Source of the DNA: Escherichia coli
GTDB taxonomy: Bacteria; Pseudomonadota; Gammaproteobacteria; Enterobacterales; Enterobacteriaceae
Length of the DNA: 64,000 nt
Direction: 5' to 3' (one strand)
NCBI RefSeq assembly: GCF_044324875.1
Contig: NZ_CP172185.1
Shown here: in pieces, positions 13,750 to 64,000 of the stretch
How the letters are laid out: each line of letters starts with the position of its first letter
How positions within the stretch are numbered: the stretch's first letter is position 1
Program-made: the position numbers and the translations under genes
The notes under the pieces: model-generated
Database searches by the model: none
Told to the model about the DNA's origin: nothing
Seen by the model: only the letters and a program-made list of their open reading frames with translations

Positions 13750-14709
13750 TTAGCGCGCGTTACGCAGTTTTTGCAAACAACGCTTCAAACCATCATCCAT
13801 CGGCGCTTCGATACGCATCACCTCACCGGTCCCCGGATGGGTAAACTTCAACGCTGCGGCGTGCAGGAACAGACGATTTAATCCCGTGCCGGCTTCAGTG
13901 AGTTGTCTGTCAAATTCACGGTCACCGTAGCGATCGTCAAAGGCAATCGGATGACCCGCATACTGTGTATGCACACGGATCTGATGAGTACGCCCTGTTA
14001 CCGGGCTACAACGCACCAGGGTGGCAAATGCATAGCGTTCTTCCACTTTAAAGCGTGTTTCCGACGGTTTGCCTTCCTGACTGACACGCACGATACGTTC
14101 GCCGCTTTGCAGAATATTTTTCAATAACGGCGCTTGAACGCTCTTCACATGCGACTGCCACTGACCGCGCACCAGCGCCAGGTAATCTTTTTGCATCCCT
14201 TTTTCACGTAATTGCTCATGCAGAGAACGCAACGCCGAGCGTTTTTTCGCTACCAGCAACACACCTGAAGTGTCCCGGTCGAGACGATGAACCAGTTCAA
14301 GGAACCGCGCTTCCGGGCGCAACGCCCGCAAACCTTCGATAACGCCGAAGCTTAAACCACTACCGCCATGTACCGCCGTACCGGAAGGTTTATTCAGCAC
14401 CAGGATATGGTCATCTTCATATAAGATGACGTCCGCCAGCGCCGCCACCTTTTGCAGATGTGGCGAAACCGCCTCTTCTTCCCGTTCAGCAACGCGAACC
14501 GGTGGGATACGCACCTCATCACCCGCTTCGAGTTTATATTCAGGCTTAATACGTTTTTTGTTCACCCGCACTTCGCCTTTACGCAAAATACGGTAAATCA
14601 TACTTTTTGGTACACCTTTCAATTGGGTACGCAAAAAGTTATCGATACGTTGCCCCGCTTCGTCAGCGGTGATAGCAACAATTTTTACGGATGGAGTCTC
14701 TGTTTTCAT
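13750..14709 (-). CDS. rluC: 23S rRNA pseudouridine synthase C
   Basis: 319-aa ORF with S4 domain and RluA-family catalytic motif (HRLDRDTSGVLLVAK). Confidence 0.95.
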   Translation of the reverse strand: MKTETPSVKIVAITADEAGQRIDNFLRTQLKGVPKSMIYRILRKGEVRVNKKRIKPEYKLEAGDEVRIPPVRVAEREEEAVSPHLQKVAALADVILYEDDHILVLNKPSGTAVHGGSGLSFGVIEGLRALRPEARFLELVHRLDRDTSGVLLVAKKRSALRSLHEQLREKGMQKDYLALVRGQWQSHVKSVQAPLLKNILQSGERIVRVSQEGKPSETRFKVEERYAFATLVRCSPVTGRTHQIRVHTQYAGHPIAFDDRYGDREFDRQLTEAGTGLNRLFLHAAALKFTHPGTGEVMRIEAPMDDGLKRCLQKLRNAR

Positions 14710-61746: not shown

Positions 61747-61940
61747 TTATCGTTATGATCTACAAAGACCACCAGCATAACAAATCCGTGGTCGGTGGCA
61801 AAAAAAGCAGATTTCGCTTATTAAAACTGCATATTGATTGAAGTTTGAATAAACGCGCGATTTTTTAAAAAAGTTTGTTGACCTCAGGTCATGATTTCCC
61901 TAAATTAGCGCCCGTTCCAGCAAGACAGGAACGACAATTT

Positions 61941-62028
61941 GGTGAGGTGTCCGAGTGGCTGAAGGAGCACGCCTGGAAAGTGTGTATACGGCAACGTATC
62001 GGGGGTTCGAATCCCCCCCTCACCGCCA
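61941..62028 (+). tRNA. serX: tRNA-Ser (anticodon GGA)
   Basis: 88-nt sequence GGTGAGGTGTCCGAGTGGCTGAAGGAGCACGCCTGGAAAGTGTGTATACGGCAACGTATCGGGGGTTCGAATCCCCCCCTCACCGCCA with long variable arm and encoded CCA. Confidence 0.97.
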
Positions 62029-62036
62029 GATATTGA

Positions 62037-62069
62037 GCGCATGTTATTGTTTAACATGCGCTTTTTTTT
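62037..62069 (+). terminator. Rho-independent terminator of serX
   Basis: Hairpin gcgcatgtta-ttgtt-taacatgcgc followed by T8. Confidence 0.8.
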
Positions 62070-62180
62070 ATTTTTCCTTCCAGGCAGTATGCCACAGGGT
62101 ATGCCATCTGAAACCGGTTTGTATGAGCCTCGATCACATCTTATCAGACAATTTCCGATCTTTGAGCATACAGGGCAAAG

Positions 62181-63023
62181 CTATACTGCCAGCATGTCAG
62201 GATAGTGTCTGACGATAATATCATTCAGTCTGTCAACCAGTTCCGGTTTCCTGAACGTGATATGCGCGGAGCCTTTCCTGAAGTATCTGATGCTGAACAT
62301 CTCATCCTCATAGCATGCTTCACCCTGAACGGACCGGATGTGCTCATCCAGACGAATGAGGATATTGTCCCGGTCAGTGGGTATGGGTTTACCGCTGAAC
62401 AGATACAGTATCCTTTCCAGGTCGGCAAGCCGCCCGGCCTGCGGACCATGGTTCAGACCAAATCCCCACCAGTCCCATTTCACCAGGTTGTTGAGGATAA
62501 TCTTACTGCCGAATTTACAGGGTGACCCGCTGTTGTGCGTCCGGCTCAGTCCTCTGAAGAGGTTGATGACGCCCCGTTCAGCCATTTCATCCCTGTTACG
62601 GTGCAGTTGTTCAGACGTACTCAGGATATTCGCTTCGCTGATTTCCGGAAAATTATCCTCCTCCAGTGAACGGTACCATTCATCACGCGCCTGTGCATCC
62701 ATCAGACTCAGCATCCCGGAGCGTTGCATCAGGTCACGCCAGATTTCACGGTCAAGGTTCCGGGTGATGGCTTTCATTGCGGTTTCCGGTTTTTCCATCA
62801 GCCAGCAGCCACAGCGAAAATCCTGTTTCACGGCCCAGTCCCGGGCCGTTTTACCTCCGATGCTTTCTGTCATTACTGAGATTTCTGCCAGTTGCCGGAT
62901 AAGCCTTTCGGTTTGTTGCAGTGCTTCATTCCGTACCGTCACAACGTGCCGGATACTGGTTGAGCAGATAACGTCCGTATGTCCGTTAAGCGTTTCCGGA
63001 CGGGAGACTGTGATATCAGACAT
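62181..63023 (-). CDS. Uncharacterised island protein, DUF4942-like
   Basis: 280-aa ORF; family assignment from memory of proteins found downstream of cbtA in CP4-type islands, not from a search. Confidence 0.7.
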   Translation of the reverse strand: MSDITVSRPETLNGHTDVICSTSIRHVVTVRNEALQQTERLIRQLAEISVMTESIGGKTARDWAVKQDFRCGCWLMEKPETAMKAITRNLDREIWRDLMQRSGMLSLMDAQARDEWYRSLEEDNFPEISEANILSTSEQLHRNRDEMAERGVINLFRGLSRTHNSGSPCKFGSKIILNNLVKWDWWGFGLNHGPQAGRLADLERILYLFSGKPIPTDRDNILIRLDEHIRSVQGEACYEDEMFSIRYFRKGSAHITFRKPELVDRLNDIIVRHYPDMLAV

Positions 63024-63119
63024 AACCGATATTCCTTTTTGCAGATAAATGAAAACGCCAGCCGTATTCGGACTGGCGTCAGTGGAATGAATCGTGGTGA
63101 GTGAGATGATGAGTGAGAC

Positions 63120-63317
63120 TCACAGGTTCTGGTGCTGAAGCTGCAGCTGGCGCAGGGTGCGGATATCCTCCCTGGCCTGTTCGATACAGGGCAACAGTGC
63201 TGCCGAATCCGTTTTATCCTCATCGTTGTCGAAGATAATGCAGGAGCCGCAGTCGATATTGTCCTGCAGCCACGCAATCAGAATATCCGGTGCTGTTTCT
63301 GTGGTTAATGATTTCAT
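63120..63317 (-). CDS. Small uncharacterised island protein (65 aa) with CxxC motif
   Basis: 3' portion of ORF-track entry 63120..63704, starting at internal Met (MKSLTTETAPDILIAWLQDNIDCGSC..), 20 nt downstream of the preceding gene stop; upstream part of that ORF overlaps the better-supported gene in another frame. Confidence 0.5.
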   Translation of the reverse strand: MKSLTTETAPDILIAWLQDNIDCGSCIIFDNDEDKTDSAALLPCIEQAREDIRTLRQLQLQHQNL

Positions 63318-63336
63318 ACGGTGTCTTTTGTCCCGG

Positions 63337-63825
63337 TTACCAGTCGAAAGTGGGAAAACCCGGCAGACATTCAGCGCCGGCATCCAGATGAATGAGACTG
63401 ACGCCATAACGCCGGATGAGAGTGACAACCAGACGACGAAACGTTTTTGACAGACCCAGGCGTTTAAGCCGCAGAGCCGGGTACGACCACGCATCAGTAC
63501 GTAACAGATATCCGCTGCCTGTAAAATGAATCCATTCTGATTCGCCGTTGTCATTCGTCTGATGCGACAGCGAGTACAGCCAGGCATTGTCCTGCTCCGT
63601 GATATGTGCGGTACTGCAGCGTATGCCGGTAAGGGCCGCAAATGGTGGCATGCAGTCTGCTGAGGTCCGGTCAGATTCATCAGCAACACGAAGGGAACAG
63701 CCATTATCGCAGACCACGTTAATCAGTTCAGCGAGATTAACACCATCGACGTCAGCGACAATGCGCCCCATGTTCAGTGCCTGTACGTTAACGCTGTCGG
63801 CTTCCAGTGTCAGGGACAGTTTCAT
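63337..63825 (-). CDS. Uncharacterised protein downstream of cbtA (YeeW-like position)
   Basis: 162-aa ORF whose ATG overlaps the cbtA stop in an ATGA junction, implying translational coupling with the toxin gene. Confidence 0.75.
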   Translation of the reverse strand: MKLSLTLEADSVNVQALNMGRIVADVDGVNLAELINVVCDNGCSLRVADESDRTSADCMPPFAALTGIRCSTAHITEQDNAWLYSLSHQTNDNGESEWIHFTGSGYLLRTDAWSYPALRLKRLGLSKTFRRLVVTLIRRYGVSLIHLDAGAECLPGFPTFDW

Positions 63826-64000
63826 GGTTTCACCTCACAGTGTTTACCCAGGGTGATGTTGTTCACCATTCTGTAGTGGCTGCGGGTCATCAGGCCGGTC
63901 GCCCGGCGGGCCCGGAGAATATCAATGCTGCTGATTAACTGCGATGAAGCTCCTGCGCTGAATCCCGGCTGGTCGGTACGCACCAGCGCGTATTTTTCCA
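63822..64000 (-). CDS. cbtA: Type IV toxin-antitoxin system toxin, CbtA/YeeV family, 3' end only (gene starts beyond window)
   Basis: Hand translation of reverse strand gives ..EKYALVRTDQPGFSAGASSQLISSIDILRARRATGLMTRSHYRMVNNITLGKHCEVKP-stop, closely matching the C-terminus of YeeV/CbtA-family toxins. Confidence 0.85.
   Translation of the reverse strand, partial: EKYALVRTDQPGFSAGASSQLISSIDILRARRATGLMTRSHYRMVNNITLGKHCEVKP

Follow-up and report, generated by a model that had tools for sequence, protein, structure and literature searches.

Does the short open reading frame (ORF) near the end of this window (the whole stretch of 64,000 nucleotides of Escherichia coli DNA that we analyzed) encode a real protein, and, if so, in what company might that protein work? 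The ORF lies on the minus strand, with its ATG at 63317-63315 and its TGA at 63122-63120 as read from the sequence and the ORF list. Its translation, MKSLTTETAPDILIAWLQDNIDCGSCIIFDNDEDKTDSAALLPCIEQAREDIRTLRQLQLQHQNL (65 aa), is an acidic product with a computed net charge of about -7.4, a pI of 4.2, and three cysteines (Cys23, Cys26, and Cys44). Our overall reading, to which we assign a probability of roughly 0.6, is that this ORF is the genuine last cistron of a cbeA-cbtA-yeeW gene string and that its product acts as a protein-binding partner of YeeW in an establishment/toxin-antitoxin setting. The features on which the argument draws are as follows, each with its source:

63120..63317, minus strand: DUF957 coding sequence, 65 aa (ORF and translation; identity to WP_001349630.1)
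63318..63336, minus strand: spacer of 19 nt between the DUF5983 stop and the DUF957 ATG (sequence)
63318..63704, minus strand: shadow-frame extension over DUF5983, not a gene (its open length varies between lineages)
63337..63825, minus strand: DUF5983 (YeeW-like) gene, 162 aa, with N and C domains (Pfam PF25638 and PF19419)
63822..64000, minus strand: 3' part of the cbtA toxin gene, which continues past the window end (strain 135 annotation)
63044..63080, minus strand: terminator-like hairpin and T-rich tail (terminator scan)
62181..63023, minus strand: DUF4942 gene, 280 aa, methyltransferase-like (Pfam PF13708, E 1.5e-60)
61941..62028, plus strand: tRNA-Ser(GGA) (ARAGORN; Rfam tRNA)

The neighbors named in the original prediction, which had been made from the sequence alone, were borne out by Pfam. 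Upstream, after cbtA, is the DUF5983 gene (DUF5983_N E 1.5e-29, DUF5983 E 2.1e-22), whose start overlaps the cbtA stop and whose TAA falls at 63339-63337; downstream is the DUF4942 gene, whose product also matches the PHROGs family phrog_6263 "DNA methyltransferase" (E 1.9e-16). Over the final 2 kb of the window, several E. coli chromosomes, strain 135 among them, match it at 99.9% identity, and the extent of cbtA was mapped through this 99.9% identical strain 135 locus (L001, where 13792-14169 corresponds to 63822-64199 in window numbering). In strain 135, the gene string reads antirestriction, RadC, DUF987, hypothetical protein, YeeU antitoxin, CbtA toxin, DUF5983, DUF957, and DUF4942. The island carrying this module ends at the tRNA-Ser, and the flanking genes in strain 135 are ghrA-ycdX-ycdY-ycdZ-csg; judged from this neighborhood, the tRNA-Ser(GGA) is probably serX. 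An RNA element was also considered as an explanation of the region and was rejected, as an Rfam scan of 61800-64000 returned nothing above threshold except the tRNA. The peptide SLTTETALDILIAWLQDNIDCESGIIFDNDEDK is one example whose detection would support the DUF957 gene.

To which family does the 65-aa protein belong? It is 100% identical to WP_001349630.1, annotated by PGAP as "DUF957 domain-containing protein" in E. coli strain 135, and to UniRef A0A0D8WHA1; the exact sequence is recorded, under the name DUF957, on 997 contigs (NCBI, UniRef). We found 332 homologs at E <= 1e-3, many of them bearing the DUF957 name, and hundreds of proteins so named are 78-94% identical to the window's protein, have the same 65-aa length, and are encoded in the same place, with DUF5983 before and DUF4942 after. 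Three substitutions set the window allele apart from this family (L10P, G26C, and R65L), all rare or absent among homologs. The gene is thus already known: it belongs to a named, uncharacterized family, DUF957, that standard pipelines annotate. Nevertheless, the 65-aa protein matched no family in Pfam-A (also at E <= 10), NCBIfam, PHROGs, or PADLOC, and precomputed Pfam annotation was empty for all of its relatives. DUF957 was, we presume, formerly Pfam PF06117, a model that appears to be absent from current Pfam-A. Aec78 is an older database name for a DUF957 protein, and the gene in the same position has also been called L0009 (933L/LEE) and orf55 of the SRL PAI (PMC6980539).

How widespread is the family? 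Of 5426 complete E. coli genomes, 4958 contain DUF957-homologous DNA, which is found at 13088 places (median 3 per genome); the gene itself is ordinary, and most E. coli carry the family in several copies. K-12 retains only a remnant: yeeW and the fragment after it are a decayed short-form gene, whose DUF957 domain has a nonsense codon and has lost ~30 codons to a deletion. As a K-12 ortholog of DUF957, ypjJ was considered and rejected: it is listed between yfjY and yfjZ, in another position. Elsewhere, a profile search run exhaustively over 1.84 billion representative proteins returned 142 matches, a scan of species-representative genomes found only 7 loci (mostly contaminated MAGs plus E. 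albertii), and the IMG/VR viral collection yielded 5 loci. Only one phage record matched DUF957.

Is the 65-codon ORF maintained by selection? We compared 26 DNA copies, taken from E. coli genomes and E. albertii, from contigs of viral collections and contaminated MAGs, and from a single distant metagenome contig. The frame is intact in all of the copies (26/26), at 58-67 codons each, and an ATG starts every separate copy. BL21(DE3) has an intact copy (L030), at 3724701-3724898 of NZ_CP053602.1. The Nei-Gojobori dN/dS of DUF957 is 0.16-0.19, and its variable sites fall at third codon positions (58) more often than at first (32) or second (27) positions; in the same loci, dN/dS is 0.18 for DUF5983, read in its own frame, and 0.17 for DUF4942. 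When the DUF957 region was read in its five alternative frames, four had pseudo-dN/dS values of 0.93-1.45 with 33-77 stops; the remaining one, antisense frame 1, had 0.30 with 4 stops, a low ratio that we attribute to the third-codon positions it shares with the real frame. Because the frames are intact and evolve like the neighboring genes, while most other readings of the same DNA have ratios near 1 and many stops, we regard the 65-codon ORF, on comparative grounds, as established to be a real, selection-maintained protein-coding gene. This comparison of frame conservation and of synonymous with nonsynonymous change was the check that the original prediction had proposed, and its outcome makes the other possibility raised there, that the ORF is not expressed at all, look very unlikely given the apparent purifying selection.

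The same copies bear on where the gene begins. A mechanical ORF call at 63120..63704 gives a product of 194 aa that overlaps the DUF5983 gene in a different frame, and the original prediction had accepted only its 3' part, from an internal Met after the upstream stop. That judgment holds. In the DUF957 frame, the stretch that is open 5' of the ATG can be as short as 5 or as long as 155 codons, depending on lineage, and an upstream length this variable marks the 194-aa ORF as accidental. The internal Met is where it was said to be, although the distance from the upstream stop measures 19 nt instead of the 20 nt first given.

Could the ORF nonetheless be spurious, a shadow or frameshift product of its neighbor that is never translated? 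Such an AntiFam-type view would fit with the missing matches in our current copy of Pfam-A and in NCBIfam, with the weak Shine-Dalgarno sequence of the window allele, and with AntiFam's reported listing of a family in the same position as "frameshifted phage proteins" (PMC13294457). We nevertheless hold it to be extremely improbable: not only does DUF957 match its neighbors in dN/dS, with most other frames near 1 and every one of the 26 copies intact, but the domain is also kept down to ~40% identity across unrelated genomic contexts and architectures, and AlphaFold2 models it with confidence. Databases seem to disagree on whether DUF957 is real, and the comparative evidence here favors a real family.

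How might translation of DUF957 start? We compared spacer and frame across 25 loci. The tail of DUF5983 is conserved, most often reading ...PTF(D/N)W followed by TAA (few copies differ), and the spacer between DUF5983 and DUF957 is 5, 11, 16, 19, or 31 nt long, by lineage. The common 11-nt spacer carries AGGA at -10; the 19-nt spacer of the window offers no more than a weak and distant Shine-Dalgarno-like sequence, GGGA at -17..-14 (63334-63331). DUF957 translation is probably coupled to DUF5983 termination or reinitiates after it, which we consider the most likely arrangement.

A different mechanism has been raised for a family in the same position. AntiFam ANF00264, labeled "frameshifted phage proteins", lies downstream of DUF5983 and next to cbtA/cbeA; its annotation takes three forms (a fusion, a separate ORF behind an "incomplete" DUF5983, or separate ORFs with a spacer between them), and it is predicted to have a small, confident, non-single-helix fold, with an AlphaFold2 homodimer ipTM of 0.87 (PMC13294457). 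The authors of that 2026 paper argued that ANF00264 is real, its listing as a "spurious" family being a probable false positive, and they suggested a programmed frameshift (PMC13294457). We infer that ANF00264 corresponds to DUF957 because the genomic position and all three annotation patterns match (e.g., at L032, described below); like ANF00264, DUF957 also has a small, confidently predicted fold.

Carried over to DUF957, the proposal would make it the C-terminal domain of a DUF5983-DUF957 fusion produced by programmed ribosomal frameshifting (PMC13294457), which we consider very unlikely. There is indeed an in-phase slippery heptamer, G_GGT_TTA/T, located 6 codons before the DUF5983 stop in many copies, where it encodes Pro-Gly-Leu/Phe; in the 11-nt-spacer lineage, whose DUF957 is in the -1 frame, ribosomes that slip by -1 at the heptamer would read straight on into it; and databases hold many fused predictions. 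However, the frame of DUF957 relative to DUF5983 is -1 in 14 loci but +1 in 11, the window being one of the latter, and this variability argues against a conserved programmed frameshift. Nor does the heptamer track the frame, as it is present in phase in 9/14 of the -1 loci and 5/11 of the +1 loci, and L006, L014, L031, L028, and L024 have the -1 relation without it. At L015, the DUF957 frame is open for just 5 codons before the ATG, within a 31-nt spacer, and in the window a -1 slip would stop at a TGA overlapping the ATG. We thus found neither a conserved heptamer nor a consistent -1 frame, but a variable frame and an independent, conserved ATG. Independent ATG initiation accounts for all lineages, and a conserved programmed frameshift does not, although low-level slippage in the 11-nt-spacer lineage is possible. 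The evidence from DUF957 therefore argues against the recently proposed frameshift explanation.

With which genes does DUF957 belong? It comes directly after DUF5983 (YeeW) in every chromosomal locus examined, at the end of a co-directional, closely spaced string (cbeA, cbtA, yeeW [DUF5983], and DUF957) that is followed by the terminator-like hairpin. In the window, this hairpin (63080-63054, minus strand) has a 10-bp stem with 6 G-C pairs and is located 40 nt past the DUF957 stop, upstream of DUF4942. Where sequence is available at this position, nearly every locus is predicted to have the same stem (GCCAGC...GCTGGCG, followed by a T-rich stretch), the most divergent ones, L015 and L024, included; the hairpin probably marks the end of a cbeA-cbtA-yeeW-DUF957 transcription unit. 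DUF4942 is frameshifted, truncated, or missing in many loci in which DUF957 is intact. Because a predicted hairpin separates the two genes and DUF4942 is so often degraded, DUF957 appears to belong with the cbtA-yeeW unit and not with DUF4942. Among known systems, a close one is the CbtA/CbeA (YeeV/YeeU) type IV toxin-antitoxin operon of CP4-44-like islands, and DUF957 sits in the same predicted string; the linkage is one of gene order. That system was characterized in K-12, in which only the decayed remnant of DUF957 persists.

Do the cysteines point to a function? The original prediction had drawn attention to a CGSC motif, a third Cys, and an acidic composition, all of which are present in the window allele (C23, C26, and C44; pI 4.2), and it had suggested a small metal-binding or regulatory protein. 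The metal-binding half of that suggestion does not survive comparison with relatives. Across the 120 closest relatives and a 43-sequence alignment, position 26 is Gly, sometimes Glu, in the other homologs listed, and Cys26 is confined, among those listed, to the window allele and partial copies of it. Among E. coli-type copies, C23 and C44 reach at least 90% conservation, but in distant members position 23 is M/S/G/Q and position 44 is A/W/H/S/Y, with no covariation. Given that Cys26 is unique among the listed homologs and that C23 and C44 are replaced in distant members, the CGSC motif is best read as a single substitution at position 26, incidental rather than a feature of the DUF957 family; alignment leaves this in little doubt. 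A regulatory role for DUF957 is possible.

To a small Cys-based metal-binding or redox protein that uses CGSC together with Cys44 we give next to no credence, even though the window allele does have C23-x-x-C26 and C44 and two of these residues are well kept in E. coli-type copies. Beyond the variability just described, of 4967 matching complete-genome records only 10 have DNA at least 99% identical to the window's, three cysteines fall short of the standard four-ligand site, and no zinc-finger or redox family was matched even at E up to 10. Cysteine metal sites have conserved ligands, typically in two CxxC pairs; here there is a single CxxC, and its second Cys is not conserved. A genuine CxxC...CxxC module was found only as an extra C-terminal domain in two plasmid homologs, P0194 and P0201. 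The CxxC lead should be dropped. What is conserved lies elsewhere: N20 alone is invariant family-wide; L10, W16, L17, D19, F29, D30, and S38 are at least 90% conserved; and the core reads WL(Q/E)DN(I/V)D...(I/L)IFDNDEDxTDS..LLP.

AlphaFold2 predicts the 65-aa protein with confidence (pLDDT 92.5, pTM 0.75, from a 49-sequence alignment) as an acidic helical hairpin, with a helix at 9-22, an acidic loop containing a small beta-bridge, and a helix at 38-63. A search for structural neighbors of the model gave none that were informative, the resemblances to Tad1 and Tsi2 being nonsignificant (E > 3), and a profile search of PDB sequences with the 65-aa protein gave nothing below E = 1. The most conserved segment, D30-N-D-E-D34-x-T-x-S38, is the loop between the two predicted helices.

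Might this loop bind a cation, or might DUF957 serve the gene that follows it? We considered whether the protein is a partner or regulator of the methyltransferase-like DUF4942 protein (itself with no sequence relatives found in the PDB) or whether it binds Ca/Mg through the D-x-D-x-D loop. DUF4942 does come after DUF957 in many loci, the distant L022 and L024 among them, and the acidic loop, placed between two predicted helices, is the best-conserved part of the protein. The resemblance to a canonical EF-hand is incomplete, however: D30, D32, and D34 are in place, but Leu41 occupies position 12, predicted helix 1 ends 8 residues before D30, unlike EF-hand geometry, and no EF-hand family was matched in Pfam at E <= 10. 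As for DUF4942, it is degraded or absent in many loci that keep DUF957 intact, and the terminator-like hairpin lies between the two genes. Both versions of this idea strike us as very unlikely. DUF957 would instead have no catalytic or Cys-based metal site and would act by protein-protein contact.

Which protein might it contact? Recurrent fusion of two domains is a classical sign of a functional, and usually physical, link, and DUF957 is repeatedly fused to the N-terminal domain of DUF5983. Three distant homologs (P0151, P0161, and P0162) are single ORFs of 118-134 aa with a DUF5983_N-like N terminus and a DUF957 C terminus; PF25638 (DUF5983_N) is on record for P0151 and P0162, one of which is encoded directly after CbtA and the other before DUF4942. 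In E. coli, an in-frame fusion of 140 aa (L032) joins the N domain to DUF957 through a 26-aa linker, and its junction is present in 917 of 5426 genomes; PGAP annotates this short form as two genes, an "incomplete DUF5983" and a DUF957. Given that the two domains are fused in several lineages, the partner of DUF957 is most likely the DUF5983/YeeW N-terminal domain, and the recurrent fusion makes this a concrete, testable partner. DUF957 itself probably forms a dimer, as a four-helix bundle, with which both the homologs that carry the domain as a tandem repeat (P0198 and P0245) and the published dimer model of ANF00264 fit. More speculatively, the YeeW-DUF957 pair may be an accessory of the island's establishment/anti-restriction/toxin-antitoxin gene set.

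Several observations weigh against DUF957 as the last cistron of the string and partner of YeeW. An AlphaFold2 model of a natural DUF5983_N-DUF957 fusion, built from a paired alignment, is of low confidence (pLDDT 51.8, pTM 0.42) and thus predicts no definite packing of one domain against the other. At L018 and L033, DUF957 is intact despite a disrupted DUF5983. The Shine-Dalgarno sequence of the window allele is poor; Pfam, NCBIfam, PHROGs, and PADLOC offer no match; and the equation of ANF00264 with DUF957 is our own inference. Finally, homologs on plasmids occur without any DUF5983, which implies that the domain can act without it.

Where are these plasmid relatives found? By tblastn, 1336 plasmids carry the DUF957 domain, and 1223 of these are conjugative; their hosts are Escherichia, Salmonella, Enterobacter, Klebsiella, and Citrobacter. 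The IncHI2 form is 103 aa long; around it is a co-directional array of small unknown genes, after which comes DUF3085. The IncT form, at 172 aa, has an extra zinc-ribbon-like CxxC...CxxC C terminus, and its array ends with psiA; among the proteins encoded next to the IncT copy, Pfam gave one ParB-HTH match only. A further relative has gp32, 5'-3' exonuclease, RecA-like, and Rep3 genes nearby. Plasmid leading regions are enriched in anti-restriction, methyltransferase, toxin-antitoxin, and uncharacterized genes (PMC11541004). The plasmid homologs resemble such leading-region anti-defense islands (PMC11541004) in lying within co-directional arrays of small genes, one of which ends in psiA, and the chromosomal island module likewise mixes anti-restriction, toxin-antitoxin, and methyltransferase-like genes. 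The window copy differs in being chromosomal and in a degenerate island, and the likeness is one of gene content. By analogy, these parallels support an establishment or anti-defense setting for DUF957, as context.

Does DUF957 go further and act in that setting by itself? A stand-alone establishment or anti-defense effector, made early once the element has entered a new cell and independent of DUF5983, would be an acidic decoy, sponge, or inhibitor of a host defense or SOS component. Its net charge of -7 would suit such a role, as would the 1336 mostly conjugative plasmids that carry relatives without DUF5983, the IncT array ending in psiA, the small unknown genes around the IncHI2 copy, and the gp32, exonuclease, and RecA-like genes near another relative; so, too, would the antirestriction gene, RadC, and methyltransferase-like DUF4942 of the island module, a combination found in anti-defense islands (PMC11541004). 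Yet we found no similarity to known anti-restriction or anti-defense proteins (ArdA/Ocr, KlcA/ArdB, Tad1, and Acr), and PADLOC and PHROGs were empty; the Tad1 and Tsi2 resemblances, as noted, were nonsignificant; 65 aa is short for a DNA mimic; and the leading-region location of the IncHI2 copy is putative. On balance, we think it unlikely that DUF957 is a stand-alone effector.

Partnership with YeeW may extend beyond the chromosomal islands. Tentatively, and as a possibility in which we have rather low confidence, the DUF957 hairpin would be a dimerizing adaptor that forms, with the DUF5983 N domain, an unrecognized unit, split or fused, found in islands and on IncHI2/IncT plasmids; this unit would either control CbtA/CbeA or act as an early establishment/anti-defense factor. 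If this is true, the adaptor unit belongs to mobile elements that over 90% of E. coli genomes carry. The DUF957 domain is also carried by many IncHI2 resistance plasmids.

Not all copies of DUF957 are encoded as a separate protein. In one comparison locus (L032), a single in-frame ORF of 140 aa on the minus strand (L032:2015-2437) encodes the DUF5983 N domain joined to DUF957 by a 26-aa linker, and the junction of this type of fusion is present in 917 of 5,426 E. coli genomes. This widespread short form is probably mis-annotated, because PGAP splits the single in-frame ORF into an "incomplete DUF5983" pseudogene and a separate DUF957 gene with a GTG start. In the CP4-44 element of E. coli K-12 (L002:5011-5334), yeeW (64 aa) and the subsequent "DUF957 fragment" likewise share one frame and are a decayed short-form fusion gene. 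It carries a nonsense codon and has lost about 30 codons, the conserved DUF957 core among them, to a deletion; the K-12 copy is therefore uninformative for the DUF957 protein.

Do other frames over or beside DUF957 carry coding signals? Antisense frame 1 across window 63120-63290 has only four stops in 24 copies, and its pseudo dN/dS (the Nei-Gojobori ratio computed on alternative frames) is 0.30. This frame shares third-codon positions with the real DUF957 frame, and we read both the scarcity of stops and the ratio as side effects of the latter rather than as signs of a gene on the antisense strand, for which the 58-aa ORF at 63132-63308 would be a candidate. Ahead of the DUF957 start, an in-phase heptamer, G_GGT_TTT, lies six codons before the DUF5983 stop (window 63318-63362, minus strand). 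A -1 slip there would stop at a TGA overlapping the DUF957 ATG (ATGA). The overlap in the window allele is probably a coincidence; a slip ending at ATGA is possible as an extra route to reinitiation at DUF957.

Downstream, the following features bear on where the transcript ends and on the state of the next gene:

63044-63080, minus strand: predicted terminator-like hairpin between DUF957 and DUF4942
L015, L017, L018, L028, L029, and L033: comparison loci listed for DUF4942 state, beside window 62181-63023

Nearly all loci whose sequence covers this position, the two most divergent among them, have the predicted hairpin, which suggests that the cbtA-yeeW-DUF957 transcript ends at this point, with DUF4942 expressed separately or via read-through. 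DUF4942 (window 62181-63023), which matches a PHROG annotated "DNA methyltransferase" (E = 1.9e-16), is often frameshifted, internally deleted, or left with only the first 49-86 codons; the adjoining DUF957 stays intact.

E. coli-type cbtA-DUF5983-DUF957 modules (88-94% protein identity) also occur on contigs filed under Gram-positive genomes or MAGs, almost certainly reflecting assembly contamination or mis-binning:

L003: Arthrobacter sp. GMC3
L004-L006 and L008: Collinsella MAG
L009: Lachnospiraceae MAG

The DUF957 domain is found on a total of 1,336 plasmids. One form, a 103-aa DUF957-domain protein encoded at L034:8971-9282 on an IncHI2 plasmid and directly followed by a DUF3085 gene, is near-constant in the large conjugative plasmids of IncHI2 type found in Salmonella, Enterobacter, and E. 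coli. On the IncT plasmid pBML2531, a DUF957-domain ORF (L035:about 7000-7520) that is absent from the PLSDB gene table lies within a co-directional array, with psiA about 6 kb downstream. This homologue and two further plasmid homologues (P0194 and P0201) have an N-terminal DUF957 followed by a zinc-ribbon-like CxxC...CxxC segment and a coiled-coil-like tail.
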